Assembly (NCBI GenBank): GCA_045533905.1
Contig: JAZSIR010000003.1
Coordinates: 91,515-155,514, forward strand
Source of the DNA: Clostridia bacterium
GTDB lineage: Bacteria; Bacillota; Clostridia; UMGS1883; UMGS1540
Length of the DNA stretch: 64,000 bases
Direction of reading: 5' to 3'
Shown: positions 16,125 to 55,685 of the stretch, piece by piece
How positions within the stretch are numbered: position 1 is the first letter of the stretch
Layout of the letters: each line of letters begins with the position of its first letter
Notes under the pieces: generated by a model
The model's database searches: none
Seen by the model: only the letters and a program-made list of their open reading frames with translations
What the model was told of the DNA's origin: nothing
Translations under genes and position numbers: made by a program

Positions 16125-16182
16125 TCCTAACTTGATGCGAGCATAAAATAAACTTAATTAGAAAAATAAAAGGAGAATTGAA

Positions 16183-17865
16183 ATGAAAAAAAGAATTTAC
16201 ATTGACTTAATGGAACGTGTAATGTCTGCATATACCGATGAGCGTATTGCGAAATACACCGAAAACGTAATAAAAAACGGACTTGAGGAACATGGGTACC
16301 CTCGACTTACAGCGAATCTTGGGATTTTAATTGCTCACGGCAGGAAAACAAAGTATAAAGACGAGTTTCGCAAAATGATGGATTTGTGTTGCAGAGAAAT
16401 CCCCACTGCTTTGGGCAGAAATGGGGGGAGAGTGGGTAATGATTTTTCTGTAAAAGAGCTTGTCTTTTGCTTACTTGAAATTGAAAAAGCAGGTATTTTT
16501 GATAAATCAGTTACAGATGGCTGGCGAAATGAATTAGCAAAAATAAATCCATACGAAACATATTCTGTTATTGCATCTGTGCCACCTGAACGCATCAATA
16601 ACTGGGCGGCTTTTGGAGCTGCCAGCGAACAGGTGAGAAAATATGCCGGCATAGGTGACGAAAGTTCGTTTATTGAAAATCAGATTAAATCTCAGTTTTT
16701 CTCATTTGATGAAAATGGAATGTACCGCGATCCTAATGAACCGATGGTATACGATACTGTAACCCGTTTGCAACTAGCGTTAACGCTTTATTTTGGATTT
16801 GATGGCGAGAGCAAAGAAAAACTTGAAAAAGAATTGCTCAAATCTGCGGATATGACGCTTAATATGCAGTCAGTGACAGGAGAAATTCCTTTTGGTGGTC
16901 GCAGTGCTCAGTTTTTACATAATGAGGCGCATTTTGCGGCGCTTTGTGAATTCTATGCAGACCTTTTTGGGAAATGTGGCGATTTAAATAAAGCAGGTCA
17001 GTTTAAAAGTGCGGCAAGAATTGCACTTGAAAGTATTACTTACTGGCTAAAAATGAAGAAAATTTATCATGTGAAAAATTACTACGATAATGACAGTATG
17101 TATGGATGTGAAGAATATTCATATTTTGATAAATATATGGTAACTGCAAGTTCTATGCTTTATGCAGGATATATTATGGCAGATGACAATGTTGATGAAG
17201 TGGATTGCCCGGCAATATCTGAAAACGCCATCTGTGAAACGAGTGAATATTTTCACAAGGTGATGTGCAGATATAAGGATTATTTCGTTGAGTTTGAAAC
17301 AATGGCAGACCATCATTATGATGCGAGTGGAATTGGCAGAATACATAAAAGGGGTGTACCTTCGGCAATTTGCCTGTCAGTACCATTCAGTGAACACCCC
17401 AACTATGAGATTGATATAGAAAATCCGTCACATTTTTCTGTTTGTACCGGGATAAAAACGGGTGACGGATATGCTTATACTTTTGATGCGTCGACCAAGT
17501 ATAAGCTTGTTGAAAAGATGGTTAACGATGAATGTGTTCAGGTGAAATTTGAATGTGAAACACGTGACGGAGCCAAGGTTTTTCAGACATGTATTCTTTC
17601 AGATGACGGTGTTGAAGTTCGTGCATCAGGAAACGGCGATGTGAGAATTTTGTTTGTGTTATTTGATTATGATGGAGAACAAGAAACAAAAATTTCTGTG
17701 TCTGAAAAAAGTGCCATTGTGTCATATAAAGGAAGCCGATGTGTTTATTCTACAAATGGCGTTATAACAGATATGAATCGGATGTACGCAAATCGAAATG
17801 GACACTACAGAGCTATGGCAACGAATGGTAAAGATAGTGTTTCTTTGAAAATAGAGATGTTTTAA
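16183..17865 (+). CDS. Hypothetical protein (helical N-terminal part plus beta-rich C-terminal part; possibly lyase/hydrolase-like)
   Basis: 560-aa ORF with AAAAGGAG RBS; NNWAA, YRDP, GGRS, HNEA motifs; family not recognised. Confidence 0.75.
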   Translation: MKKRIYIDLMERVMSAYTDERIAKYTENVIKNGLEEHGYPRLTANLGILIAHGRKTKYKDEFRKMMDLCCREIPTALGRNGGRVGNDFSVKELVFCLLEIEKAGIFDKSVTDGWRNELAKINPYETYSVIASVPPERINNWAAFGAASEQVRKYAGIGDESSFIENQIKSQFFSFDENGMYRDPNEPMVYDTVTRLQLALTLYFGFDGESKEKLEKELLKSADMTLNMQSVTGEIPFGGRSAQFLHNEAHFAALCEFYADLFGKCGDLNKAGQFKSAARIALESITYWLKMKKIYHVKNYYDNDSMYGCEEYSYFDKYMVTASSMLYAGYIMADDNVDEVDCPAISENAICETSEYFHKVMCRYKDYFVEFETMADHHYDASGIGRIHKRGVPSAICLSVPFSEHPNYEIDIENPSHFSVCTGIKTGDGYAYTFDASTKYKLVEKMVNDECVQVKFECETRDGAKVFQTCILSDDGVEVRASGNGDVRILFVLFDYDGEQETKISVSEKSAIVSYKGSRCVYSTNGVITDMNRMYANRNGHYRAMATNGKDSVSLKIEMF

Positions 17866-17917
17866 AATGGAGATATGTTTTTGACGTTGATTGGCACAGG
17901 CTATCACCAAAAGAAGT

Positions 17918-17953
17918 TGCATCTAAACCTTATGTGTCGCAATTAATAGATGT
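17918..17953 (+). repeat. GCATCTAAACC junction palindrome, copy 1
   Basis: TGCATCTAAACCTTATGTGTCGCAA identical to 18664-18688; GCATCTA can pair with TAGATGT at 17947-17953. Confidence 0.85.
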
Positions 17954-17983
17954 CGAATTTTGTTGTTAAAAGGAGATGAAATT

Positions 17984-18619
17984 GTGTTTTGTAATGAGAT
18001 TGTAGAGGAAGTATTTGAATGTATGCCAGAATATGATGACGACAGCGTAAATTGGTTTTTTGACTGTTATCATGATATGGCACTGCATTTAACAAAAGGG
18101 TACAGAATTATATTAAAAACCAAATCTTATTTCATTTGTATCGGATATGACGGAGTTAAGATTGTACCTAATACAGAGAATGTTGTATTTGCCGGAGAGT
18201 ATATGGAATCGTGCATACATATAATTGACGAAAATGAAGAGCCTTGGATTGATTATGAAAGCACATTGTTTGTCGGAGAGCAACTTGTTGATGTAAAAAA
18301 AGGAAATGGTTGTTATATATTAACCTTTAATGATTTTGAATTAAAAATAATGCCCCACGATAATCCAGACGAAATAGAAGGACTTTATCAAGAAAGCCAC
18401 TGGTCGTATAATTATGTTTATGGTTTAGATAGATTGTTAACAAGAAAATGTAATTGTGGAGGGACAGGAGAAGTTTTATTGGATTTCGTTTCTGATTATG
18501 TTATTAGATGCAATAAGTGCAAAAAATCAACTTATGCAGAAATGATGGTTGTAAATGCTATAGATAATTGGAACAGAGGGGAAAACCCTTGCGATTTATC
18601 TGATATTGAAATCGAATGA
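17984..18619 (+). CDS. Hypothetical protein with C-terminal Lar-like zinc ribbon
   Basis: AAAGGAG RBS before GTG 17984; CNCGG...CNKC...AIDNWNR. Confidence 0.65.
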   Translation: MFCNEIVEEVFECMPEYDDDSVNWFFDCYHDMALHLTKGYRIILKTKSYFICIGYDGVKIVPNTENVVFAGEYMESCIHIIDENEEPWIDYESTLFVGEQLVDVKKGNGCYILTFNDFELKIMPHDNPDEIEGLYQESHWSYNYVYGLDRLLTRKCNCGGTGEVLLDFVSDYVIRCNKCKKSTYAEMMVVNAIDNWNRGENPCDLSDIEIE

Positions 18620-18663
18620 CTCTTTATTCATGACTTGGTGCGTGCAACTCTTGAAGAAAGTTC

Positions 18664-18699
18664 TGCATCTAAACCTTATGTGTCGCAAGTAGTTGGCGT
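18664..18699 (+). repeat. GCATCTAAACC junction palindrome, copy 2
   Basis: 25-bp exact repeat of 17918-17942 followed by degenerate TTGGCGT arm. Confidence 0.85.
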
Positions 18700-18751
18700 A
18701 TAAAGAATATTATTTTATAATTCATTTCATAAATTATTTGAGGATAAAAAA

Positions 18752-19459
18752 ATGTTAATTGATTTGCATGCACATACTGCAGGAATAAGCAAGTGTTGCC
18801 GTTATACAGCTTCAAAAGTTTTAGAAAGCGTATATGAGGCAGGGATTGACGGGATAGTTCTTACGAATCATTATCAAAAAAGTTATATTGATAATGAAAA
18901 AATAAATAGTTTTATAGATAAATATATAGAAGAATTCTATTTTACACAAGCACTTGGCGAGCAATTAGGACTAAAAGTTTTTTGGGGAATTGAGGTTACG
19001 ATGGAACTCTATCCTCATGTGCATATGTTGATTTATGGTGTTAATACGGACTTTCTTAAGAGTCATCCGTTAGTATTTGATTATACTCAAAAGGATTTAT
19101 ATACCGCAGTTAAAGATAATAATGGAGTGCTTATACAGGCACATCCTTTTAGAAATGGTACAACCATTTTGGATGTGGACTTCTTAGATGGTGTTGAAAT
19201 TAACTGTCATCCGCTATATAACAATTCGTATTCGCAGGAAATATTCAACATCGCAAATGAAAACAGGCTGGCTGTGACTTGTGGTGGAGATTTTCACGCG
19301 GATACTTACCGACCTAAGTGCGGAATGTACTTGCCTGACAACATCGTCAACAGTTGCGAGTTGGGTAAATATATTGAAAATGCCAAAAAAGTTAGTTTGT
19401 GTATGCATGAACCAAATGCAACTATGTGTCAAAAAATTGATTTTTATAGAGAATTATAA
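18752..19459 (+). CDS. PHP-domain metallophosphoesterase
   Basis: DLHAHT, LTNH, GIE, AHPFR, GGDFH motifs. Confidence 0.88.
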   Translation: MLIDLHAHTAGISKCCRYTASKVLESVYEAGIDGIVLTNHYQKSYIDNEKINSFIDKYIEEFYFTQALGEQLGLKVFWGIEVTMELYPHVHMLIYGVNTDFLKSHPLVFDYTQKDLYTAVKDNNGVLIQAHPFRNGTTILDVDFLDGVEINCHPLYNNSYSQEIFNIANENRLAVTCGGDFHADTYRPKCGMYLPDNIVNSCELGKYIENAKKVSLCMHEPNATMCQKIDFYREL

Positions 19460-19461
19460 TA

Positions 19462-19501
19462 TGCATCTAAACCGTCTGTCCTATATATGCGGTTGATGCG
19501 A
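19462..19501 (+). repeat. GCATCTAAACC junction palindrome, copy 3
   Basis: GCATCTAAACCG...CGGTTGATGC imperfect inverted repeat, 3 nt after the PHP stop codon. Confidence 0.8.
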
Positions 19502-34639: not shown

Positions 34640-34707
34640 AACTATATATATACTTTTTTTGGCAAGCAATCTGAAAACCGTGCAAATTGCGCGGAGGAGG
34701 TGGCGGT

Positions 34708-37700
34708 ATGCGTCCGGATAAAAAAGCGGCCTTTTGCGAGGCGCTTATTCCTATGCGGGGCAAAGCGGTACATATTATAAAAGAAAATGGAGACGAACTG
34801 GAAGGAATTGTGATGAGCGCAGAGCCAGAGGGCCTTGGGCTTATTTCCCTTTCGGGACCGGAGACGATTCCGTATGAAGAAATCGCAGCCTGCGATTCTT
34901 TCGGCGTTGTTCTTTTAGAGGCAGAGAAACCCGAGGTACGGGAGGGTGAAGCGCTTTTAGCCGAAGTGGAAAACGGTACGAAGGCGAGCTTTCTCGAAAA
35001 ACTTACAAAGCCTTCTTTTTATAAAGAAGCCGGTCTTTCTCGGGAAGAAGCTGAGGAGATACGTGCGCGTACCCAAAAGCATACGTATCCTTGGAAATCG
35101 GAGCCACTTGCCGTAGCCATCCGCTACAGTACGCTTTTGAAAGAAAAAGCACGTCCCGAGCTTACGGTCGGGTTATATATCCGCGCGCTTGAGAGCGATG
35201 AGCCGCGTAAGGACAAGGCGGTTTTAGAGCTTCTTCGTGCCTATATGCGTATGCAGGCGTATGAAAAGGTAATAGAAGCCTACGAAAAGTACGAGTCGCT
35301 TCTCGGGGAGGCGCCGTATGCCCATATGCAGTCGTATGCAGCTGCTATCGGTTATGTGCAGGGCGAGGTAGCGCTCTCTGCATTTTTGGAGGCGCACCCG
35401 GCGCTTTTGGATTATTCCACAAACCGTTTGTTTTTTGATAAGCTTATAAGAACACTTCGTGAAAAGAAGGAGATAGAGGTTGTTGCCTCGCTGCTTAAGA
35501 GTACGCCGAAGGTACAGCCGAATGCATTTGAGGCGGCGGTTTTATCCGGCAACATTCACAGAGCTCGCCAGCTTGCCGCAAATGTGGCAGAAATGCAGAA
35601 GATGGGGTATGCACGCCCGCACGAAATCGAAGCAATGCTTTTGGAGGAATCCGTTGCGGATATGGGCAAGAAACTGCCGTGGCAGCGCGCGTGCATCCTT
35701 GTGTATCTGGAAGGTAATCGCGGCCGCGTGGCGGAGCGCGCCCTTTTGGAGGCAGGGGAAGAAAGCGGCGCGAGAGCGGCACTTCTCCTTTTGTATGCCA
35801 AAGAAAAAGCACATGATAAGGTTCTCTGTTTGTATCAAAATATGGAAGATGCTGCCTTTGACCAAAAGTGTGCCGCATTTATCGCCTATAATACGCTCGG
35901 GGAGATTTGGAAGGCGGAAGAAATTTTAGAAGCCGCGCCGGAAATGTTTGCCGACCCCGATGTCCGCCTCGCGATTTTGGCTGCAGGCGACGCATACGGC
36001 GAGGAGGCAGAAGCCATCGCGCGGGAAGTCGAGGAAAAAGCTTCCCCGAAGGAAGGGCAAAATCCGCTTGAAAAAGCACTTATTAAAGGCAATGTAGCCG
36101 AAATTACGGCAATTTCCGAGGATGCGGCGGCGCTTTCATCCTACGGGTATACCGAAGCGGAAATTCGGCATATCGGGAAAGCGGCAACGAAGCCGTATCC
36201 GGATCTTAAAAATGACTTTTCTGCCGCTCGCCGCCTGCACGCTTTTCTGGGTGGCCGCGGTCTTTTGGCCCTTTCTTATCTCTGTCGGTATGCAACAGAG
36301 CAGAATACGGGCGAAATTCTCTCTTTAATGCATCTCAGCGGTCTTTCTGTATGGGGCATCCGCTTTTTTGAGGCGCGGCGCGAGGTTGCCGAAGGGCAGA
36401 GCGCGGCCTGTGCGGCCTATGCCTCGATGCTTTTGGCTACCCGTCCTCTGGAAGAAGCAATAAGGGAAATAGAGCCGTTTATTCACTGCATTTATGACCG
36501 CGAGCTTTTGGAAAAGGTGCGCGCAGGCCTTCCGGAAACGGGCAGGGATGCGCTCGCAGCAAGAATAGATGAAATTCTGGATGCCTATGAGCCGAATGCT
36601 TTCGAAAAGGCTGTTATCGGTGCGCATGGCTATAAGCAGATGGGAAAAGACGCGGAACTTCTTCTCTCTCTCGGCTATACCGAGGAAGAAGTGAAAAGCA
36701 TCGCGCGTGTATGCGACAATGCGCCAAAAGGGGAAAGTGAAGCCGATATCGGGCGCAGACTTTATCATATACAAGGGAATAAGAACGGCCTTGCCGAACG
36801 GTATCTCGCGCCGCACGCGTGCGAGGGCATAGGGATGGCGGAGCCGATGTTCCATATTTATGTAGGGAGCGGTCGCTATAAAGAGGCGATGGAGCTCTAT
36901 AATCAGGCAAAAGACATACTGGCACCCTATGAAACACAAATTCACAAGGAACATTTAAGCGCACTCTATTTTACAGGTGCGGCAGAAGAATTTATTGCGC
37001 TTTATGAAAACGAAGGCGGCGGTCGCGGCGTGCATCTTCCCATGTATGCCGAGGCGCTTCTGAAAACAGGAAATGCAAAGTTTTCCGAGGTGCTTTCTGC
37101 GCTGGCAATCGTAACCTATCAGAGCGCAGAAAAGGTTGTATGGGAAAATCTCTGCATGCTTCTTTCCGAAAAGGAAATGTATAAGGAACTTGGCATACTT
37201 TTGTGCGGCTTTTTCAGGACCGCTGTGCGCGGCGGCACATATGCAGATTTATTCCCGCTTCTTGAAAAGTGCGCCGGGGATGACAAAACGAAGGATGCTA
37301 TCATTGAAGCGGCGATTTCCGAGGGGCTTCCTATGTTCCTGCCCGTTTTCTGGATTATGCACAAAGAGGAGCATCCGCAGCGTGAGGCGGCCGAAAACTG
37401 GTGCGCCGATCAGCTCCTTTCCCTGCAGGAGGCGGTTTCGGTGACCGAGCCTGTCTACGCCTTCCTCGAAATGCTCTTCCCACAGAAAAAGACGGATATT
37501 CAGGAGGGGAAATTCCTGCAGCTTCTCGGCGGCGAGGGCCCGCATACGGGGGCGGCGGCATTCCTTACAAAGCTGTTTACAGACGGAGAACATCTGCTTT
37601 TAGAGCGTATGCTCCCGCATCTTGGTGCCAAAGCGGCAAGCCCGCTCATTTTGGCGGCACTTTCCCAGATTTTCCACGGCGGTGTTCTTTGCGATGAAAT

Positions 37701-40700
37701 CGTGCTGCTTTTGTCAGCATATATAAAGGAAGCACCGGAGGCTATCTGCGGCTTCTTTACGGATAATGTGGATATGGCTTCGTACCAAGAAAAAATCCCG
37801 GAAGAGAACCTTGCCGAAATGTACGAGGCGTACAGACAGTATGCACTTTCCGCAGGAACGGAGACGGCGCACCGCACAATGTATGCCTTCCTTTCCGATA
37901 CGAACCATCCGGATGCGCCGATATTGGCATCCGTGATTCTGCAGAACAGCCATATCTGGCAGTCAACCGAAACCCGCGCGGCGTTTGAATCTCTCTACAG
38001 AGAAAAGTACGGCAAAGCAGGAAAATCCGTACTTTCCGCTACCTTTGCGGCACTTCTGGCCGGCGAGAATCCTGAAAAAGTTTACACGTTCCTGCAAAAA
38101 TGGCATCCTTTCATAAATTGGAAGCCGCACGAAGTGCTTAAAATGCTTGGTCGTGCCCGCGGCGAAGGGGAAAGCGACGAAACGGTATGCAGTATGGCGG
38201 TAGTCTATAAGGAAGAGGCTGCCTGGAGAAGACTTCTGGAAATGTATCGCCATAAAGGCGTGGGAACAGAAGGGACGATCTATTATCTGATTGCCAAATG
38301 CAGCAGTGATCCGGATGATTTGAAAATTGCATACGGCTTTGCCGGCAAAAACGGTCTTTACACCCTGCAGACCTATGCTTCGGTTCTTGGGGCAGGCAAA
38401 GGCCGCGCGGATGCCCAGCTGGTCTGGCGCTGGGCACAAAATATCACACGCTTTGCAAAATCCGGCGCAGAGGTTTCAAAGGAGCTCTTTGCCTATGCTG
38501 TAGATACGGCACGGGCAGTCTTCGGAAGTAATCCGGAAGCCATTGCCATTTTGCACGCGGTACGTGCGCTCGCATTTGCGGGCAATTATATCCGCGAATA
38601 TACAGAGGGTCTTTCGGATGCGCTTTCGAAGAAACCGAATATACTGATTGCACTTTTATTGGAAGTGCTTCTCCACGCGCCGGAGGAGGAAATTATAGAA
38701 GAACTCATACGGCTTCTGGAGGAAAAAGTGCCGGATACCATCCCGTTCAAGGCGTTTGCACTATATGCGGCGGCAAAACGCGCTACTCTTTCGGAAGAAC
38801 CTGCGCTTTTGGCGGCAGTGCGGACGATTGCGCCCACAGGGCATAGCCTTACCGTTTCCGGCGTGCAGCATTTTGTGGCCGAAGCCGTAACGGCAGAGGC
38901 GGAAAACAGCGTCGAAGTTGCGCTGGGGGCACTTTCGGTACTGCATACCTATTTTGAAAACGACGGCCTTTTGCATGAGGCAGAGTATTTTCTCCTTGGT
39001 GCCGCCGGCGCGGATGAAGCGCGCGCGGAAGACTGCTACCGTGCGCTTACGAAATATCTGCAGTATGCAAAAATCGTAGATGCAGGCGTTTTGGTGCGGT
39101 ATTCGGAGTGTATGTACTGCGGTATCCGCTACCTTACCAAAAAGGGACTTTCCTTTGGCGACGGACCGAAAAACACAGAGGAACTTCTGGCGTTTTTTGC
39201 CGGCCTCTGTGAGGAGGAAGCCGCCCGTGCGGAGCTTTCGCAATTTATCCGACGCACGGAGATGCTCGGGTCTGCGGCAGAAATATACGATACGCTGATG
39301 CTGTGCGGGCTTTTTGGCTCGTGGCGGAAATTTATCGAAACGGTGGATACAGCGCTTTTGCCCGAACACGAAATTCTGGAAATAGATTCGTTTATCGGCA
39401 GCGTAGGCCGCGAGAACTTCCTGAATGCGGCTGCCACCACAGAAAAATGGCGAAATGTACGGGACTTTCTAACAGAGTCGAAGGCTGTGGCCTGCGAAGC
39501 TGCCGTGGAAGCGGCCCAAACGGCAGAGGCAAGGCAGAAGGCGGCAAACTACGCCCGCTTTATGCTTCTGGATGAAAAGAGCGGAAAAATTCTGGCAAAC
39601 AAAATTTTTGCAAGGATTACGCCCGATATTTTCGGGGAAATTTTCCCGATGCTTCGTATTCTGCTGCGGGACGATACCCTTCTGGATAAACTTTCGAAAA
39701 TGCCGGCAGAATTCTGGAGTGCGGCTTCGGCCTCGGTTCTTCGTCAGAAAGATACGGTGCCGGCGCTTTTGCAGCAGGCAGAGTATCGCGCTTTCCTGAA
39801 AGCGCTCTCTGAAAAAATGTTTAATGCGGGGATGTACAAAGAAGCATCACCTGTTTTTGCCGTGCGCTTTTCTTCGGATAACGTGACCGGAAAAAGCCCG
39901 AAGGAAAATGCAGAACACGCGAAAGTGCGGCAGTATACCAAAATCTGTGACCTGATGTGCCGCGTACCGGAAGAAGTGGAGAGGGTGCGCACAAGCACCG
40001 AGCACCAGAAGCTTATCAATATTTTCTCCGTGTTCTTCTCGACACCCTGTGTAAAAGAACTTCCACGTCTTGCTGCACTTCTCACAAAGCTGCAGAAAAA
40101 GCTGTGTGTAGCGGTATATTTTGCAATGCGCGGCGAATTTGAAGATTTTGAACTGCTCGCCGCCGATATTCAGGCAGAAAACGCCGCGATGGGTGAAACA
40201 CTATTCCGCTTCGGGGAATTCCGCTTCAGGGAAGGCGACCGGAAGGAACGTTGCCGTAAATATATCCAGAAGCTGCAGGGCGAAAACGGAGAGGAAATGC
40301 GGCTGTTCTTCCTGTATATGCCTGCGACCGAAATTTTGTCGCACTTCCGCATTTTTGATATGATTGACCTTGAAAATGACGGAGAAGAAGCCTTCACAGT
40401 GCGCCCGGATGCGACTGTGGAGGCCGCAGCGCCGGAGAAGAGCGACAGCGAGGCATTCCTTTCGCTTTCGTATGTACAGTATATACTTTCCATGGCGGCG
40501 GGAACGCCCGGCGCGCCTTCGGCACAGGAGGCTATGGAACGCTTTGAGGAAGAGGCGGGGATTGAAAATGCCGTGGCCGCTTTGAAGGCGCCCGATTTTA
40601 AAGAAGTTTCAGCTTCTGCCATGCAGGAATTCTTTGCAGACTTTGCCATCTGCGCCTATCAGACGATTCTGGCGAGCGATGCGGAGGAAACAGAAGCCTT

Positions 40701-42639
40701 TGCGGCTGAAATTTTCAGAACGCTTTCGGTGGTATCCGCCATATCGGCAGAGATGGCCAATATCCTTTGCGAAAGCCTGGCCATACAGCTTGCATCCTTT
40801 GAAAATCTTTCCGATATCCGCGCATGCCTCGGCAAAAACGGCGAAAAGCTTATGAAGCTTCTTTCGGCGGCGGACAGAGAGGATATCAAGGTACTTCGCC
40901 TTGCTATGAAGCTGTATATCGACACGGTTGGAAAGCTTTCGGATATTCGCTCGTATTGGGATGAGGGCAGAAAGATTAAAGAAACGGAAAAATATCTTGC
41001 ACGCCTTGAGACGGAGGGCGAAAAGCTTGCCGATGAAGCCGCAGGCGATATTTTAGGAAACCTTGCATACATTCTGGAAAGTGAGATTGAGGACCTCAAA
41101 CGGGTACCGCTTTTCCGGCTGCACCTGGATGAAACGGAAGTGCCGGAAGGTCTTTCGCTTACAGGCTTTGTGGAAAACTACGGGCAGGCCGTGGGCAAAG
41201 ACGTAACTCTTCTTTTAAGGACGCTTGACGGTGATTCGGCGACATTTTGGATGGAGACATTCCACGGTGGCTGGAAGGCACCCTTTGCATTCCGACTGCC
41301 GCCAAGGGCGCCGGGTGAGGAGGTTAGCTTCACCGCGCAGATTACATACACCTTTTCGGACGACGGGAAAGGCGGTGAAGCGAGCCGCCGCAAGAGTCTC
41401 GGTGCACATGCCGTTCGCATTGTGCCGCGCGTGGTATACGAGGCCGATCCCATCGGAGATGCCACGATTTCGGTAGAAAACATCGAAACGGATTTCATCG
41501 GCCGCTTTACAGAGGTACAGGGATTCAAAAATGTGTTTTACCTCCATAAAGATATAGACGGACAGATGCAGAAGGTCCCACGTCCTCCGGAAAAGGTAGA
41601 CGCTATGGTGATAAACGGGCCGAAGCGCGTTGGCAAATCCTCTCTTCTGCACTATCTGGAAAAGATTGTACTGGAGATACCGGACAAGTGGGTCTGTGTC
41701 TACTTTGATCCTATGGGCAACAAGACAATAGAGGATATTTTCATCGGCGGCTTTGTGAACGCGTGGGAAAAACGGTACGGTGCAGTTTCGGAAAGTGAAG
41801 CGTATCGCCGTATTCTCGAAAAGCTGCCTTCGGGCAAATTCTCTGCAACAACGATGGAAAACTTCTACCGCGCCTTCCGGGATACATTCGCTCCCGGAAG
41901 GAAGATTCTGTTCATCATAGATGAATTTGAAAAGGCAATGCGACTTGTGGACCCCGGCACGGTTTTTGATCTTTTGCAGCATGCCACTAAAAACCACCGT
42001 GATCTTATCAGCTTTGCCGTTTGCGGGTCGGATGATCTTGCCGGCTATATCTTTGACAGAGAACATGATACGCAGTTTTTCTCGCTTGCAAAGCTCTTCC
42101 GTGTCGGCCTTATGCCGCGGGAGGAATATGACCTTCTTTTGGCTGCCTACCAAAAGCTTACAAAGCTGACGCTCGATGCCCAGGCGCGAGAAGCACTCTG
42201 GCAGCTCACGCGCGGGCAGGTGTACTATACACAGCGCATATTCGACAAGATTGTAGATAATTACGGCGTTCATCCCATTTCGGGCGCACGGAACCAAATA
42301 CACCTTTACGATGTTTATTGGGCGTTCGGGCAGCTTCGGAAGGAAGGAACTATGTTTATCGATATCGTCGGGATGTTCGATAAGTACAAATCGGGCGAGC
42401 GTGAGGTAATGGAAGCCCTTTCCACGTATGCCACCGCGCCCGGCGCGTGTGTAAGCCTCGGCTTGATTCAGCGAAAAGCGGGAAATGTGGATGTGGATAT
42501 GGCACTCTCAAGGCTTACTATGCGCGGCTTTGTGGAGAGAGTGGGAGAAGACTATCGCTTCACATCGGAAATATACCGCATGGTCTTCGCGGACTATGCG
42601 CCCGAGGCGTTTTACTTCATAGAAAACGGAGGAAACTGA
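34708..42639 (+). CDS. Giant (2,643 aa) helical-repeat protein with C-terminal STAND-type P-loop NTPase
   Basis: GGAGG RBS; ~180-aa internal repeats; FIGR, Walker A GPKRVGKS, Walker B LFIIDEFE, LTRGQV, C-terminal wHTH-like segment. Confidence 0.85.
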   Translation: MRPDKKAAFCEALIPMRGKAVHIIKENGDELEGIVMSAEPEGLGLISLSGPETIPYEEIAACDSFGVVLLEAEKPEVREGEALLAEVENGTKASFLEKLTKPSFYKEAGLSREEAEEIRARTQKHTYPWKSEPLAVAIRYSTLLKEKARPELTVGLYIRALESDEPRKDKAVLELLRAYMRMQAYEKVIEAYEKYESLLGEAPYAHMQSYAAAIGYVQGEVALSAFLEAHPALLDYSTNRLFFDKLIRTLREKKEIEVVASLLKSTPKVQPNAFEAAVLSGNIHRARQLAANVAEMQKMGYARPHEIEAMLLEESVADMGKKLPWQRACILVYLEGNRGRVAERALLEAGEESGARAALLLLYAKEKAHDKVLCLYQNMEDAAFDQKCAAFIAYNTLGEIWKAEEILEAAPEMFADPDVRLAILAAGDAYGEEAEAIAREVEEKASPKEGQNPLEKALIKGNVAEITAISEDAAALSSYGYTEAEIRHIGKAATKPYPDLKNDFSAARRLHAFLGGRGLLALSYLCRYATEQNTGEILSLMHLSGLSVWGIRFFEARREVAEGQSAACAAYASMLLATRPLEEAIREIEPFIHCIYDRELLEKVRAGLPETGRDALAARIDEILDAYEPNAFEKAVIGAHGYKQMGKDAELLLSLGYTEEEVKSIARVCDNAPKGESEADIGRRLYHIQGNKNGLAERYLAPHACEGIGMAEPMFHIYVGSGRYKEAMELYNQAKDILAPYETQIHKEHLSALYFTGAAEEFIALYENEGGGRGVHLPMYAEALLKTGNAKFSEVLSALAIVTYQSAEKVVWENLCMLLSEKEMYKELGILLCGFFRTAVRGGTYADLFPLLEKCAGDDKTKDAIIEAAISEGLPMFLPVFWIMHKEEHPQREAAENWCADQLLSLQEAVSVTEPVYAFLEMLFPQKKTDIQEGKFLQLLGGEGPHTGAAAFLTKLFTDGEHLLLERMLPHLGAKAASPLILAALSQIFHGGVLCDEIVLLLSAYIKEAPEAICGFFTDNVDMASYQEKIPEENLAEMYEAYRQYALSAGTETAHRTMYAFLSDTNHPDAPILASVILQNSHIWQSTETRAAFESLYREKYGKAGKSVLSATFAALLAGENPEKVYTFLQKWHPFINWKPHEVLKMLGRARGEGESDETVCSMAVVYKEEAAWRRLLEMYRHKGVGTEGTIYYLIAKCSSDPDDLKIAYGFAGKNGLYTLQTYASVLGAGKGRADAQLVWRWAQNITRFAKSGAEVSKELFAYAVDTARAVFGSNPEAIAILHAVRALAFAGNYIREYTEGLSDALSKKPNILIALLLEVLLHAPEEEIIEELIRLLEEKVPDTIPFKAFALYAAAKRATLSEEPALLAAVRTIAPTGHSLTVSGVQHFVAEAVTAEAENSVEVALGALSVLHTYFENDGLLHEAEYFLLGAAGADEARAEDCYRALTKYLQYAKIVDAGVLVRYSECMYCGIRYLTKKGLSFGDGPKNTEELLAFFAGLCEEEAARAELSQFIRRTEMLGSAAEIYDTLMLCGLFGSWRKFIETVDTALLPEHEILEIDSFIGSVGRENFLNAAATTEKWRNVRDFLTESKAVACEAAVEAAQTAEARQKAANYARFMLLDEKSGKILANKIFARITPDIFGEIFPMLRILLRDDTLLDKLSKMPAEFWSAASASVLRQKDTVPALLQQAEYRAFLKALSEKMFNAGMYKEASPVFAVRFSSDNVTGKSPKENAEHAKVRQYTKICDLMCRVPEEVERVRTSTEHQKLINIFSVFFSTPCVKELPRLAALLTKLQKKLCVAVYFAMRGEFEDFELLAADIQAENAAMGETLFRFGEFRFREGDRKERCRKYIQKLQGENGEEMRLFFLYMPATEILSHFRIFDMIDLENDGEEAFTVRPDATVEAAAPEKSDSEAFLSLSYVQYILSMAAGTPGAPSAQEAMERFEEEAGIENAVAALKAPDFKEVSASAMQEFFADFAICAYQTILASDAEETEAFAAEIFRTLSVVSAISAEMANILCESLAIQLASFENLSDIRACLGKNGEKLMKLLSAADREDIKVLRLAMKLYIDTVGKLSDIRSYWDEGRKIKETEKYLARLETEGEKLADEAAGDILGNLAYILESEIEDLKRVPLFRLHLDETEVPEGLSLTGFVENYGQAVGKDVTLLLRTLDGDSATFWMETFHGGWKAPFAFRLPPRAPGEEVSFTAQITYTFSDDGKGGEASRRKSLGAHAVRIVPRVVYEADPIGDATISVENIETDFIGRFTEVQGFKNVFYLHKDIDGQMQKVPRPPEKVDAMVINGPKRVGKSSLLHYLEKIVLEIPDKWVCVYFDPMGNKTIEDIFIGGFVNAWEKRYGAVSESEAYRRILEKLPSGKFSATTMENFYRAFRDTFAPGRKILFIIDEFEKAMRLVDPGTVFDLLQHATKNHRDLISFAVCGSDDLAGYIFDREHDTQFFSLAKLFRVGLMPREEYDLLLAAYQKLTKLTLDAQAREALWQLTRGQVYYTQRIFDKIVDNYGVHPISGARNQIHLYDVYWAFGQLRKEGTMFIDIVGMFDKYKSGEREVMEALSTYATAPGACVSLGLIQRKAGNVDVDMALSRLTMRGFVERVGEDYRFTSEIYRMVFADYAPEAFYFIENGGN

Positions 42640-42640
42640 A

Positions 42641-44026
42641 ATGTGCAATCCATTTGATTACGAAAGCGGACATACGCTATCCTGCAAAAATATTACCGAG
42701 CGGCTTGACCGCCTCGGCAAGGCAAAGACGGAGCGGGAGATATTTTCGAGCGGTATATACGGCCTTTTCGGCTCCGGTAAAACGAATTTTCTGGAGAGCT
42801 ATTTTTCGCCGGAGCGTTGCCGTGCGCTGGCAGAGGGAGAAGGCCGCCAGCTGTACCCTAAAGTTATGCCAACACGAAGCCCGAAGTCGGAGGAGCTGTT
42901 TGCAGATATCTATGAGGCGATCCGTGCATATATCGAAAAGTATGTGCCCAGAGGGGCCTTACCGTCGTTCCCGAAGCTTGGCAAGGATATAGCGGACAGC
43001 ACCGAGAAGCTGAAGGCAATGGCACAGAAGATCCGCGAAGGAGGGTACCACCTTTTTCTTGTCATCGATGAGTTCCACCGTATTTCGCAGTGTGAAACGA
43101 TTCGGGAGGATGATTACGAGGAGTTTCGTCAGCTCAAGGAAAACAGTGAAATAAAGATGCAGTATGTCGTAGCAACCGACTGTGACTTTGACCCGCAGAA
43201 CACAAGCCATACCACCCCCTTTACAACATCGTTTTTCGTACATGCCTTTGACGGGAATTCCGAAACGGTCGGCGGGATGAGCCGCACAGAAATGGATGCG
43301 TTTCTCGCGGGCTTTCTGGAAGAAGGCGCAGAGCCGGTCTTTACAAAGGAAGAAACGGATATGCTGTATGCGCTTACGGGGGGCCTTCCGCATATTACAC
43401 GGAAAACAGCGCAGGTTCTGTATGAATACAAAGATAGCAATATGACAGAGGAGGAGTTGCGGGCGAAGGCGGGTGCTGCGGTGCAGGATCAGTTTGAGTG
43501 CTGGTGCGAAAGCCTTACAATGGCACAGAAGGCGCTTCTTCGGAAAATGGTGACCGAGGGTTTTTCCAAAATATATCAGAAGAAGGAAAATCGGCCGTAT
43601 AACGGGCTTGTAAACCGCGGCTTTGTGCTGGAGGGCAATGAGAAATCCAAAGACAGAAACGTCGACACAAAGCGGTTTTGTTGCGAGCTCTTTGCCGATT
43701 ATGTACAGGAATCCTTTGAGGAGGAATACGCGGCGGTGTACGGCGCAAGCCCGGAAGTACGTTTGGATCCGGAAGGTCAGCAAGAATGTCTCCAGGAGGC
43801 ACGACGGGTGCGGGAAATGATCGTGCAGAAGCTGAAGGAGCTGGAGGAGAAACAGGGCATCACCGTAAAAATAACCATCCGCACCTTCAAAAAACTGGAG
43901 TCCGAACTCCGGAAAATCGTGGAAGAACTGGGAGATCGGCAGTATGATGCGGAAATGATTGTGGAATACACCCGGCAGGTTGAAGCGATTAGGAGAGAAT
44001 ACAAGGGGAGAATGATATGGAAATAA
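42641..44026 (+). CDS. Second STAND-type P-loop NTPase with C-terminal coiled coil
   Basis: Walker A GLFGSGKT, Walker B LFLVIDEFH, LTGGLP (GxP), LVNRGFV; starts 1 nt after upstream stop. Confidence 0.85.
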   Translation: MCNPFDYESGHTLSCKNITERLDRLGKAKTEREIFSSGIYGLFGSGKTNFLESYFSPERCRALAEGEGRQLYPKVMPTRSPKSEELFADIYEAIRAYIEKYVPRGALPSFPKLGKDIADSTEKLKAMAQKIREGGYHLFLVIDEFHRISQCETIREDDYEEFRQLKENSEIKMQYVVATDCDFDPQNTSHTTPFTTSFFVHAFDGNSETVGGMSRTEMDAFLAGFLEEGAEPVFTKEETDMLYALTGGLPHITRKTAQVLYEYKDSNMTEEELRAKAGAAVQDQFECWCESLTMAQKALLRKMVTEGFSKIYQKKENRPYNGLVNRGFVLEGNEKSKDRNVDTKRFCCELFADYVQESFEEEYAAVYGASPEVRLDPEGQQECLQEARRVREMIVQKLKELEEKQGITVKITIRTFKKLESELRKIVEELGDRQYDAEMIVEYTRQVEAIRREYKGRMIWK

Positions 44027-51420: not shown

Positions 51421-51495
51421 GGCACCATAGCCAAGTGGTAAGGCATGGGTCTGCAACACCCTGATTCCCCGGTTCAAATCCGGGTGGTGCCTCCA
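51421..51495 (+). tRNA. tRNA-Cys(GCA)
   Basis: Cloverleaf, GCA anticodon, U73-CCA. Confidence 0.95.
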
Positions 51496-51536
51496 AAAAG
51501 CAAGAATTACACAAAGTGTGGTTCTTGCTTTTTTTC
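51496..51536. terminator. Bidirectional terminator between the tRNA cluster and the DeoR gene
   Basis: AAAAGCAAGAA...TTCTTGCTTTTT. Confidence 0.7.
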
Positions 51537-51544
51537 TTTTACAC

Positions 51545-52258
51545 CTATTCCCAAGGCATTTTTTTATCACATATTATCAAATCTACATCATCCTTGTTAC
51601 ATAATGTAAACGTTTTTTGAAGTCCTAGTTTTGACGAGTCGCAAAGAAAGATTTTCTTTTTTGAGCGATTAAGCATAGCTTTTCGTAGTGATGTTTCTTC
51701 TTCTGATATGTCGCTTATTTCACCGCCATCTGAAATTGCCTGACTGGAGAAGAAAAAAATGTCTGCGTTTGTATTGTTGATATATTTTTCGGCAGTGCTG
51801 CCAAAGAAGATGCTGTTTTGACTGTCAAAAAGTCCACCTGTACAGTAGAGTTTTATGTGAGAATGAGTACATTCTGAGAAAATACGTTGATTGTTTGTTA
51901 TTATTTTAAGGTCTTTAAATTTACCAATATACTTTATAATTCGTCTTACGGTAGAAGAACCGTCCATAAATACAGTTGCACCGTCAAATATGTAATTTGC
52001 GGCTTTTTTTGCGAGGTCCTCCTTTGTTGAAACGTTGGAAGAATCTCTTAAATTTACAGGAACAACATTGTTTTCATATTCTGCTGCAACTACACCGCCG
52101 TATATCTGCTTTACATAGCCTTTTTGCTCAAGAGCCTTTATATCTCTTCTTACAGACGATTCGCTCGACCATACAATCTTTGAAAGCTCTTTAATTGTAG
52201 AACATCTGTTTTGTTTCAGATGATTTAAAATTGTTTCTTGCCGTTCGTATACAATCAT
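51545..52258 (-). CDS. DeoR/GlpR family transcriptional regulator
   Basis: ERQ..I, SESSVRRDI, FMDGSST, ITNN, CTGG, CDSSK. Confidence 0.92.
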   Translation of the reverse strand: MIVYERQETILNHLKQNRCSTIKELSKIVWSSESSVRRDIKALEQKGYVKQIYGGVVAAEYENNVVPVNLRDSSNVSTKEDLAKKAANYIFDGATVFMDGSSTVRRIIKYIGKFKDLKIITNNQRIFSECTHSHIKLYCTGGLFDSQNSIFFGSTAEKYINNTNADIFFFSSQAISDGGEISDISEEETSLRKAMLNRSKKKIFLCDSSKLGLQKTFTLCNKDDVDLIICDKKMPWE

Positions 52259-52269
52259 GTTTTGCTCCT

Positions 52270-52390
52270 TTGTGAAAAAGTTTGAAAAGATTTCAATATC
52301 GGCACCAACGATTGACTTCTGATAGCATTGATAATATAATTATAATGTAATTTTCAAAAAGTTTCAAGTATTTTCAAATCTTTTCAGGAG
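52270..52390. promoter_or_regulatory. Divergent promoter region with DeoR-type operator repeats
   Basis: TGAAAAAGTTTGAAAAGATTTCAA and the reverse-oriented TTTTCAAAAAGTTTCA and TTTTCAAATCTTTTCA; TTGACT and TATAAT-like boxes between them. Confidence 0.5.
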
Positions 52391-52400
52391 GTAATTATAA

Positions 52401-54746
52401 ATGGCAGTTATAACAATCGTAGGAGCCGGAATGATGGGAAGTGCACTTGCATTTCCGGCAAGAGAGAATAAAAACGAGGTAAGAGTTGTAGGAACACATT
52501 TAGACAGAGAGATTATTGATGGTTGCATAAAAAACAACAGACATCCGAAGGTTGAAAAAGATTTTCCTGCAGGGATAGAATTTTATCAGATAGAACAGCT
52601 TGCAGAAGCTATTGATGGCACGGATGTTGTTATTGGTGGTGTGAGTAGTTTTGGAGTAGAATGGTTTGCAGAAGAAGTGATTCCTGTGATTCCCGATAGC
52701 GTTCCTGTTCTTACAGTAACAAAAGGACTTATGGATACAGATGACGGGAAGCTTCTGACATATCCTGATGTTTGGAAACAAAAGCTTGAGTCGATTGGAA
52801 AGAAGCTGTCTCTTAACGCAATCGGAGGTCCTTGTACAAGCTATGAGCTTGTGGCACACGACCAGACAGAGGTTGCTTTTTGCGGTGATGACATTAAAAC
52901 CCTTACGTATCTTAAAGAACTTATGCAGACTGATTATTACCATATAAGCATCACAACCGATGTTACAGGTATAGAAAGTGCAGTTGCACTGAAAAACGGT
53001 TATGCACTTGGTATTGCTCTCACAATCGGACTTAATCAGAAAAACTTTGGAAATGATGAACTTCATTTTAACTCTCAGGCGGCAGTATTTGGTCAGGCAT
53101 CAAAGGAAATGTACAGACTTTTGAAATTCCAGAATGCATTGACGCTTGATAACCTTTGTGTTGGTGTAGGCGACCTTTATGTTACGGTTTATGGTGGTCG
53201 TACACGTCTTGTTGGTATTCTTCTTGGTAAGGGGCTTAATATTGACGAAGCAAAAGCCGAATTAAACGGAGTAACATTAGAATCACTCGTTGTTGCAGAG
53301 AGAGTTGCAAGAGCAGTGAAGTTAAATATTAAAAAAGGTATTTTGCATGAAGAAGATTTTCCGCTTCTTTTACACATTGATGAAATTTTGTCAGACAAAA
53401 AGGAAGTTAACATTCCATGGGAAAAATTTACATTTGGAAAGGTGAATAATATGGAGAACACCATTCAGTTTTCAAAGAATATACCGTATTATGGGCATTT
53501 TGATATTATTGTTTTCGGAGGCGGACCTGCGGGTGTCTGCGCAGCCATAGAAGCTGCAGAGGCGAAAAAAAGTGTGTTATTGGTTGAAACAACGGGAATG
53601 CTTGGCGGTATGGCAACATCGGGTTTAGTAGGTCCTTTTATGACATGCTATGACCGGGATGGTAATATTCCTGTGGTTGGAGGTCTTTTTAGAAAAATTG
53701 TTGATAAATTGGCAGAGTACAACGCAGTATATAAGCCTGAAGAACTCGATTCGCCAAGTATTCATACATCATTTATTGAAAGATATCATCGTCATGTAAC
53801 GGCATTTGATTCGTTTTCGTTACAGGTTGTTCTTGACGAAATGACACAGAATGCGGGTGTTAATGTTATGCTATACACTCGCTTTGTGGACTGTATCTGT
53901 GAAAATGGCAAAATACAGAAAGTTATTCTTTCGGCACTCGAAGGACTCGTTGCAGTTGACGCTGAAATTTATCTTGATTGTACGGGGAATGCTGATGTTG
54001 CGGCATCTGCGGGCGTACACACATATAAAGGAGAAGAACAAAGCGGTGTGCCTCAGCCAGCTACTTTGATGTTTGAGGTAAGTGGTGTGGAGGATGAAGG
54101 CTTTATTGAAAGAAGTGAAAGACCTGAAAGACCGGTCAAAGCCTTCAGAACACCTATAGATGGAAAATATAAGGTTAATCATTACCATGTATTTGATGTG
54201 GATGCAACCAATTCAGAGAGTATGACGAACGCGCATATAAAAGCACGAAAACAGGTTTTAGATGCTTATAATGTTCTTCGCAATCGGACACGAGGCTTTG
54301 AGAATGCGGAAATTGCACAGGTTGCATCTGTTCTTGGAGTGCGCGAAAGCCGTCATATTGCAGGAAAATACAAAATTACGGTTGATGATATTGTAAACGG
54401 AACGAAATTTCCCGACCGCATAGCAACCTATGGTTACGGAATGGATGTTCATCCAAGAAACGACAAGGAATTCGGTAATTTTAAAATTGAGGTCGCAGAA
54501 AGATACTATATCCCATACAGAAGCCTTATTCCGGAGGGATGCGATAACTTAATTGTCGCGGGCAAAACAATCTCCTGTGAATCGCAGGCAGCAGGTGGAC
54601 TTCGCTGTATGCCTTGTGCAATGGCTATGGGACAAGCGGCAGGTGCTGCTGCTGGGTTGGCTGTAACCAACAATAGTGCACCGGGAAACATCAACATTGA
54701 TGAGCTACAGGCAAATCTTAGAGAAAAAGGTGCGATTTTAGACTGA
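52401..54746 (+). CDS. Fusion of NAD(P)H-dependent glycerol-3-phosphate dehydrogenase-like domain and FAD-dependent oxidoreductase
   Basis: GAGMMG, TKG, ALKN, GVGDL in the first ~350 aa; GGGPAG, LGGMATSG, DCTGNAD, VRESR, IPYRSL, MGQAAG after Met at 53451. Confidence 0.85.
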   Translation: MAVITIVGAGMMGSALAFPARENKNEVRVVGTHLDREIIDGCIKNNRHPKVEKDFPAGIEFYQIEQLAEAIDGTDVVIGGVSSFGVEWFAEEVIPVIPDSVPVLTVTKGLMDTDDGKLLTYPDVWKQKLESIGKKLSLNAIGGPCTSYELVAHDQTEVAFCGDDIKTLTYLKELMQTDYYHISITTDVTGIESAVALKNGYALGIALTIGLNQKNFGNDELHFNSQAAVFGQASKEMYRLLKFQNALTLDNLCVGVGDLYVTVYGGRTRLVGILLGKGLNIDEAKAELNGVTLESLVVAERVARAVKLNIKKGILHEEDFPLLLHIDEILSDKKEVNIPWEKFTFGKVNNMENTIQFSKNIPYYGHFDIIVFGGGPAGVCAAIEAAEAKKSVLLVETTGMLGGMATSGLVGPFMTCYDRDGNIPVVGGLFRKIVDKLAEYNAVYKPEELDSPSIHTSFIERYHRHVTAFDSFSLQVVLDEMTQNAGVNVMLYTRFVDCICENGKIQKVILSALEGLVAVDAEIYLDCTGNADVAASAGVHTYKGEEQSGVPQPATLMFEVSGVEDEGFIERSERPERPVKAFRTPIDGKYKVNHYHVFDVDATNSESMTNAHIKARKQVLDAYNVLRNRTRGFENAEIAQVASVLGVRESRHIAGKYKITVDDIVNGTKFPDRIATYGYGMDVHPRNDKEFGNFKIEVAERYYIPYRSLIPEGCDNLIVAGKTISCESQAAGGLRCMPCAMAMGQAAGAAAGLAVTNNSAPGNINIDELQANLREKGAILD

Positions 54747-54770
54747 TTGCGGAAAGTATAAGAGATCTAA

Positions 54771-54881
54771 AAAGATGAAGATGGTGTTAAACTTGCAATT
54801 GCAAACGGAGCAGGGTTGATTACATGTAATGATCCTGATGTGATATTAGATTTGCTTCGTAAAATAGGATACCATAAATAA
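54771..54881 (+). pseudogene. 3' remnant of a glycerophosphodiester phosphodiesterase-like gene
   Basis: Reads KDEDGVKLAIANGAGLITCNDPDVILDLLRKIGYHK*, resembling the GDPD C-terminal G-x-x-x-I-T-x-N/D-x-P motif; no start codon. Confidence 0.45.
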
Positions 54882-54883
54882 TG

Positions 54884-55047
54884 GCATCTAAACCATTCGG
54901 ATCTTCCAAAAATCGACAAGGTTCGTCAGAATCTTGTCGATTTATTTATTACCTATTCACTATTCACTTTTCCCTAAAATACCTTGTTGATTTTTGAAAA
55001 GTAATCGGTAATAGTGAAAAAGGAAGAAGCAAGGTGTGCATCAAGCC
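54884..55047 (+). repeat. Structured element starting with GCATCTAAACC and ending with GCATCAAGCC
   Basis: Same 11-mer as in the 16-19.5 kb island; perfect 11-bp hairpin 54910-54943; second imperfect hairpin 54956-55018. Confidence 0.65.
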
Positions 55048-55455
55048 ATCCAGAGGCTGCGCCGGGCAAGGGGTGGCGCAAAAGGCGCTTTCAATGATAA
55101 CAGCATCACGGCTGACGGAAAAGGGATGATTGTAGTCGGCGTGGATACAGAAAGCGGGGAATTAGCCGATAAAGGATATTATTCTTGCGGTATTTCTCTG
55201 GATAAGGCGCCGAATGGAGAGGCGTTTGCTGGAATGCAGCTTCCTAATTTTGAAAAAGCACTTGAAATTGCGACACATATACATAGTCAGATGCCTTTTG
55301 CTGTGTTTGTCGGTTTTGATATAGCGTTCGATAAAGATGGCGAACCCACGGTTATGGAATATAATTTGAATGCACCCGGTGTTTATTATTATCAGTTGAC
55401 CGGCGGCCCCGTTTTCGGCGCGCGTACAAAGGAAATTATGGATACATATTTTTGA
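55036..55455 (+). pseudogene. C-terminal fragment of a sugar-transfer-associated ATP-grasp protein
   Basis: DN...G..VGVD..SGEL, LPNFE, VGFDIAFD..G.P.VMEYN; the N-terminal portion is missing. Confidence 0.6.
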
Positions 55456-55685
55456 TGCGCGCTACGAAAAAAGTCTGTGCATATAAAATCCGGAAAAGAC
55501 TACCCGCAGGTAGTCTTTTTCTGCTATAAAAAGGGGTATCACACGCTGTGAAGCTTCTATTTCGTCAAATTGGCGAATACGAGGGCAGAAATCGTCGTTT
55601 TTTCAGTATGTATGTATCTTGACACCCTTCGCCTTTGGGCGTACAATTATGTGCGGTAAAATAAGAATCACCCAAAGGAGAAGAC

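Follow-up and report, generated by a model that had tools for sequence, protein, structure and literature searches.

A real but decayed copy of a tRNA-anchored cassette stack, probably built by a large serine recombinase, in a Clostridia genome

Among the systems closest to the locus reported here are integrons, with their tyrosine integrase IntI and attC hairpins, and the composite islands of SCC, which stack at a gene end and include members without ccr. Like integrons, the locus has small cassettes, mostly co-oriented, that end in a conserved site just 3′ of a stop codon; unlike them it has no IntI, its site is not an attC hairpin and its anchor is a tRNA end. With SCC composite islands it shares cassettes, here probably moved by a large serine recombinase (LSR), that stack at a gene end and include recombinase-less members. 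SCC has a single protein-gene target, whereas the CCA of tRNAs is used here, by units as small as 185 bp. The SCC recombinases CcrA/B/C act at rlmH (PMC13739063, in the portion used here), and the LSR of locus L166, described below, scored 119 bits against the NCBIfam CcrB model, for which the cut-off is 900, placing it outside SCC.

The ssrA islands of Dehalococcoides (DsiB/DsiA) have ssrA as target, a T-loop crossover and a 20-bp direct repeat, according to the sections of PMC3146451 drawn on here. As in the present system, an LSR (of ~540 aa there) is encoded by the left end and accompanied by a small accessory recombinase ORF, the units are stacked in tandem behind a tRNA-like gene end, and many of them lack an enzyme. 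The islands differ in that the present elements insert at CCA, in no fewer than six kinds of tRNA and in tmRNA, and in that the right end here is element-specific, with no copy of the target; with many tRNA kinds having only CCA in common, the locus is not an ssrA-GI, which is ssrA-specific and has the 20-bp repeat. The accretion of CIMEs and IMEs likewise gives tandem arrays with enzyme-less units that retain att sites, but in the part of PMC5704250 consulted the tRNA-end IMEs use tyrosine integrases, with one tRNA kind each, and the site-specific serine IMEs disrupt protein genes. Tycheposons, too, are cargo elements that form islands behind several tRNA genes; as far as the excerpted preprint goes, theirs are mostly tyrosine integrases, one per tRNA, and their boundaries are partial tRNA copies (bioRxiv 10.1101/2020.12.28.424599). 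Multi-targeting LSRs such as Cp36, also found in Clostridia, provide the precedent of one LSR cluster with many targets, but these targets are protein-gene clusters, the main text makes no mention of tRNA, and DUF4368, present in 63% of multi-targeting LSRs (PMC10083194), is not among the Pfam matches of the L166 LSR. Targeting of many tRNA kinds and the lack of a duplicated tRNA end are the differences that set the present system apart from the known SCC, ssrA-island and CIME systems. No such element is described in the part of PMC12884075 consulted, and we found no description of the site or the family in a literature search that left subscription journals mostly outside, although supplements and databases (the att tables of PMC10083194, TIGER/Islander) may list elements.

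The window, by which we mean the whole 64,000-nt stretch of DNA analysed, belongs to a 1.57-Mb genome (G000). Judged from sequence, it is quite probable that 54884-54908 is the right end, likely attR, of a cassette starting at the CCA of a tRNA-Cys gene, and that the hairpins following it are a truncated, gene-less second cassette, likely fused by deletion to an ATP-grasp gene.

The anchor of this cassette stack is tRNA-Cys(GCA) (51421..51495, + strand; ARAGORN and Rfam), the last gene of a Val-Asp-Phe-Gly-Cys cluster, with its CCA at 51493-51495. A tRNA-Cys was recognised in 12 of the 16 loci examined (11 from relatives, one with only 6 bases beyond). In all 11 relatives, DNA unlike that of the window begins at the first bases past the CCA, and the site lies within 250 bp of the tRNA in three. 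The far ends of units show no repeat of tRNA sequence beyond the CCA. Because the CCA of tRNA-Cys is the junction, with no such repeat at the far ends, 51496-54908 is taken as a single cassette (cassette 1; + strand, 3.4 kb, ~39% GC), which starts at the tRNA-Cys CCA and ends at the 25-nt right end. In order, it holds a terminator-like hairpin, a DeoR regulator (51545-52258, minus strand), a glycerol-3-phosphate-dehydrogenase/FAD-oxidoreductase ORF (52401-54746), a remnant of a GDPD phosphodiesterase (54771..54881, +) and the right end.

The cargo of cassette 1 (DeoR, dehydrogenase and oxidoreductase) also occurs in the genome G349, which belongs to another family, with 89% identity across 3,219 bp, the one such match among 399 scored. 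There it is flanked by the same sites, and the next site is then followed by the window's hairpin sequence (85% over 139 bp); finding so similar a cargo amid stacked sites in another family would speak for cargo mobility. The ORF at 52401-54746 encodes 781 aa in the window vs two genes (349 and 431 aa) in G349, and public contigs have an extra base near 53436 within it, so that the long ORF is either a recent frameshift fusion or an assembly slip. Alignment with the homologous cargo in G349 and the public contigs ends at 54748-54759. Of the GDPD gene only the C-terminal 36 codons are left, the remainder being deleted. By itself the 36-aa piece gave no family match, yet the label given to it in a preliminary description, made from the sequence alone, was right: it has matches at the C-terminal ends of proteins from 6 of 300 other genomes, and all four full proteins scanned are PF03009. 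The missing N-terminus is on the side away from the motif.

The right end of cassette 1, GCATCTAAACCATTCGGATCTTCCA (54884..54908, +), opens with the 11-mer GCATCTAAACC (54884-54894) and closes with CCA (54906-54908), and has the length and register of a tRNA end from T-arm to CCA. It is likely an attR half-site of a serine recombinase, with the crossover probably at the final CA. In folds the 25 nt are largely unpaired and form no hairpin of their own. As described before, the motif begins 2 nt past the stop codon at 54881, and another copy, at 19463, lies 3 nt past the stop of a PHP gene. The 11-mer has four exact copies in the window and eight in the genome vs 0.3-0.4 expected from order-2 to order-4 Markov models (P ~1e-8); when two mismatches are allowed, the count (20 vs 17.5) is at background level. 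BLAST and a PWM found two more copies of the longer form of the site. All three full sites of the genome are 3′ of a tRNA on the same strand: tRNA-Cys (3.4 kb), tRNA-Lys (4.3 kb) and tRNA-Trp (70 bp). One 11-mer copy (C11:7009) is antisense within a gene and was taken as chance.

The first 17 bases of the site, used as a query against species genomes, gave at least 122 loci, mostly from Clostridia as judged from 80 record titles. A full site, which required at least five of eight matches to a consensus ending in CCA, was present in 103, and 19 were set aside; conservation at site positions 18-25 thus partly served to define the 103, a few of which overlap or share a genome. Among full-site loci with at least 2.9 kb upstream, a same-strand tRNA was found there in 15/36, vs 1/59 downstream; eight tRNA kinds are represented among the nearest ones. 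The site is followed by a hairpin of -8 kcal/mol or lower in 91/99, vs 22% on its 5′ side. In the order of the window's genome, 35 of 87 genomes have the site pattern and none has the reversed control, and among 20 regions fetched it was common to find two to four sites stacked behind one tRNA. Phage and plasmid collections yielded no match; a viral scan gave one, within a coding region, taken as chance. The motif is a true marker of recombination junctions, as the preliminary description had proposed, with copies far above chance, the site behind tRNAs and the junction at CCA.

Past the junction lie the hairpins. The 11-bp inverted repeat that had been noted at 54910-54943 (54910-54920/54933-54943) is present, making 15 pairs including wobbles, as is the second hairpin on CTATTCA units; it is an imperfect one of TATTCAC repeats, with CTATTCA occurring twice at 54953-54966. 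The hairpin region folds with z = -6.0 (DNA) and -4.1 (RNA) relative to shuffles. Homologues, which the preliminary description had suggested looking for, exist in other loci: 54909-55029 is 81-89% identical to copies that start directly 3′ of a tRNA CCA or of the same site. Such a start was seen in 12 of 14 full-length copies (seven tRNA ends, four right ends and one partial tRNA copy), and in seven loci the copy is closed ~185 bp on by a site of its own. In public contigs, too, the first hairpin is joined to tRNA T-arms at 54905-54909. We therefore read 54909..55029 (+) as the first two-thirds of a ~185-bp gene-less unit, here called a mini-cassette, whose own right end is lost and which is probably immobile in the window. 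A longer version of it carries a 23S_rRNA_IVP four-helix gene (L010), and the units that directly follow either a CCA, in many kinds of tRNA, or the 25-nt end range from 0.18 to >5 kb. The first hairpin, which is terminator-like (a terminator scan gave two matches vs 1.0 expected, weak on that alone), most likely replaces the terminator of the tRNA. The earlier proposal of a ~160-bp element at 54884-55047 thus holds as regards a non-autonomous mobile element but not as regards its boundaries, since the motif ends the upstream cassette, the junction is 14 nt past the motif and the hairpins open the next unit.

Homology to other mini-cassettes stops at 55029-55036, with an overlap of a few bases with the ATP-grasp piece that follows. 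This ORF had been described as N-terminally truncated at the motif, but it is split in two, with a change of frame and a loss of ~193 nt between the pieces. Fragment A (55034..55081, +; residues ~154-170 of the homolog), with the V-C-I-K-P motif, shares a short GTG overlap with the mini-cassette to which it is fused; fragment B (55084..55455, +; residues ~235-352) matches ATPgrasp_ST (PF14397). The intact homolog has 358 aa (PF14397), with 61% identity over the C-terminal part. TGCATCAAGCC (55037-55047) is located where the preliminary description had placed a variant of the motif, but 13 of 14 bases there are identical in the intact homolog, where they code for V-C-I-K-P at residues ~154-158, and its 10-mer has four copies in the genome; it was ruled out as a second site. 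The fusion of mini-cassette and ATP-grasp piece is likely a deletion scar, and it and the ~193-nt frame-shifting deletion are both products of decay. The truncation points, for which coincidence with the motif had been suggested as a check, do not coincide with it: neither the GDPD nor the ATP-grasp break is at the site, and the GDPD loss is on the far side.

A terminator-like hairpin at 55494..55519 is the probable far edge of the stack, with no intact right end before it. No PWM score above 14 was obtained in this region, and no match to the hairpin was found. Nor was the tRNA-Cys locus found in an empty form, with the tRNA next to the GGDEF/azlC side: L131, an azlC-matching relative, has tRNAs but none for Cys, and none of the 10 other azlC-matching loci has a tRNA in the DNA examined. 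Since neither an empty allele nor a match to the far-edge terminator was found, the far boundary is uncertain.

The window's cassettes encode no LSR, and cassettes of this kind seldom carry an enzyme: a crude flag for recombinase motifs found none in the cassettes of 80 loci. Intersecting the positions of sites and recombinases across the order gave, among the recombinase matches listed, one case in which the two are close, L166, with the order tRNA-Met, left end, Recombinase-only ORF, KilA-N, 521-aa LSR, cargo and site. The LSR matches PF00239+PF07508+PF13408 (Resolvase, Recombinase and zinc-ribbon). Its relatives (a clade of ~515 aa) have a common left end ~1.25 kb upstream. Of 22 distinct contexts of this left end, 17 are preceded by CCA, four by TA, and one is probably spurious. 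The 17 comprise 11 tRNA or tmRNA genes of seven kinds (tRNA-Met, Asn, Cys, Arg, Leu, Lys and tmRNA), three site-like 25-mers, two degenerate tRNA ends and one contig edge. In a quick tree search (n = 50) the CCA group (11 rows, SH-aLRT 99) and the TA group (five rows) were sister clades, with the LSRs of this genome outside both. The exact site is found downstream in 3 of 11 loci of the LSR clade and variants in three, with none in five within 8-13 kb; at L331, too, none was found. None of 10 more distant control loci scored above 14. Distant elements with an LSR triplet (L337-L339; 44-46% identity) also close with similar 25-mers, and the cognate enzyme is therefore not unique. The cargo of the LSR elements L166, L167, L266, L267 and L331 seems defence-rich (Panacea antitoxin, TIR, YhcG, RES).

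Of the 87 genomes in the order, 35 have the site, 8 the left end of the CCA LSR clade and 2 a member of that clade. In the present genome, 95.5% complete, no member of the clade was found (best match 38%), and neither was the left end. Its own recombinases were rejected as drivers: the five PF00589 tyrosine recombinase genes are on other contigs, and the four LSR genes fall outside the CCA clade; between the C8 LSR and a nearby tRNA-Leu lies a MATE-like gene, with no site. By its association with the site and the left end, an LSR is likely to have built the cassettes.

The left end of the LSR elements matches the site in inverted orientation, with CA as the centre (14/24 positions; 19/24 in L042), and the right and left ends form a ~50-bp imperfect palindrome around a central CA. 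Counted from this centre, GCATCTAAA, the distal 9 bp of the site, occupies positions 16-24, which in the attP half-site of a serine integrase hold the motif for the zinc-ribbon domain (PMC3783163, in the part drawn on). This position would explain why the 11-mer is common to the ends at 17919, 18665 and 19463. By inspection, the T-loop of the tRNA lies at the same distance from CCA as GCATCTAAA, that is, unshifted; in the attB half-sites of serine integrases, the distal motif is shifted 5 bp inwards and attP x attB recombination is one-way. Past the junction, conservation is limited to an A-rich run.

These features suggest a mechanism. In an element circle the right end would be joined to the left end, giving an attP in the form of the ~50-bp imperfect palindrome centred on CA. 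The LSR would read GCATCTAAA on the site and, on the target, the T-loop, which is universal to tRNA kinds; since the enzyme would read the T-loop in place of the motif, many tRNA kinds would be usable. The cut would fall at CA, so that the tRNA would stay intact and acquire a new terminator. With every insertion, a right end and a terminator would be left in the layout of the original target, and hence stacking would be allowed. Enzyme-less units would move only with the LSR supplied in trans. Movement of the mini-cassette, whose left end matches the inverted site at just 7 of 24 positions and so is not an inverted copy of it, would need a relaxed, non-classical pairing of sites.

An alternative is that the units are decayed remnants (CIMEs) of complete LSR elements, never mobile alone, and that terminator modules spread between tRNA loci by homologous recombination. 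LSR-deleted derivatives do occur (L167, L332, L333), the window's copy is plainly eroded, and in L178 and L181 one terminator sequence stands after the tRNA and again after the downstream site, so that it is the terminator, not the tRNA end, that is duplicated. Against it, tRNA-Asn, Cys and Met in different genomes are followed by ~185-bp units that are nearly identical and complete at both ends, and these units lack the LSR-type left end that simple deletion would leave; we regard this explanation as unlikely. Quite unlikely as well, and ranked just after it, is that the mini-cassettes are REP/PATE-like single-strand elements inserted 3′ of CCA by a Y1 HUH transposase, with the LSR elements merely sharing the target. 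Their bodies are hairpin arrays, target duplication is absent and their left ends are not inverted site copies, behaviour that we take to resemble that of REP/IS200. However, the LSR-bearing elements close with the same site, which forms a dyad with their left end; the right-end site has no hairpin; and the genome has just a broken 36-codon Y1 match, with a crude motif flag giving two ORFs in the 80 loci.

Recombination of the site by a tyrosine enzyme, Xer-like or integron-like, is very improbable. Such enzymes normally need a 6-8-bp overlap, and the targets here have only CCA in common, which is too short. The genome's five PF00589 genes and the usual choice of tRNA ends by tyrosine integrases (PMC5704250, in its consulted part) would suit this reading, but a crude flag found no tyrosine-recombinase motif within 3 kb in the 80 loci, and the site shows the geometry of a 25-bp half-site. 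One palindromic C11 copy had suggested a tyrosine core, Xer/dif-like or palindromic, but the 25-nt register and the CCA junction ruled it out. That 54884-55047 forms a single structured ncRNA, or a complete recombination site with a motif copy on either side, is hardly credible despite the strong folding and the small shares of it found in contigs of two RNA libraries (contigs cannot show transcription), since its halves occur separately in relatives, its right-hand motif is coding, copies starting at CCA lack the motif, Rfam 15 covariance models gave no match at E <= 1 in 54.7-55.5 kb, and two-sided changes amount to three pairs of the first stem (in two of six sequences, likely from a single event) and, in the second stem, two single cells.

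Related ends occur elsewhere in the window and the genome. In the window, 17919..17943 (+) is a 25-nt end of another sub-type, which has the distal 11-mer in common and does not end in CCA; it lies in an AT-rich island at 16.1-19.5 kb together with a second end of its sub-type, also with the distal 11-mer (18665..18689, +), and a 25-nt end closing in TA (19463..19487, +), like ends downstream of related serine recombinases. The island (16120-19487) starts after a 26-mer similar to the targets with a TA end that the sister LSR clade uses (L269-L271, L335) and looks like a second, non-tRNA stack system. There are at least six TA-type ends elsewhere in the genome, on C11, C17 and C18, and several TA-type targets have TTGAC, resembling a -35 box, ~10 nt before the junction. 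A 122-aa gene in C11:88598-89170 has a REP-like palindrome pair around it, and this arrangement is flanked by three ends of the 17919 sub-type, of which two are separated by 44 bp. The tRNA-Lys (C3), tRNA-Ser (C1, C4) and tRNA-Arg (C15) genes of the genome, and L023, have a different small structured trailer with an inverted T-arm copy, and at C13:6419-6540 a partial diverged copy of tRNA-Trp lies 5′ of the intact gene. A second motif-like 25-mer is found 87 bp upstream of the site in L028, L040, L062/L063 and L352, after the same two-gene sugar-utilisation cargo. Window positions 34687-44026 hold a 2,650-aa ORF followed by an AAA_22/TniB-like ATPase.

Beyond the window, a genome-wide analogue of the integron in gut Clostridia can be put forward tentatively, as a proposal somewhat less likely to be right than wrong. 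One family of serine recombinases would read the stretch from T-loop to CCA of any tRNA, which would make each tRNA end a docking site, every insertion would rebuild such a site, and any DNA between CCA junctions, down to 185 bp, would be mobile in trans; the sister clade, with the same ends and a TA-ending, non-tRNA target, would represent a natural switch of specificity. The window's own copy is a decayed junction only. Island finders keyed to duplicated tRNA ends plus an integrase would likely overlook units of this kind. A serine integrase able to use many kinds of tRNA, with insertion 3′ of CCA and no damage to the tRNAs, would be a useful integration tool, and the CCA and TA sister clades offer a clean test of target change in these enzymes. 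If the mechanism is true, it accounts for a common source of strain-level turnover of genes, with both metabolic and defence cargo, in uncultured gut Clostridia.
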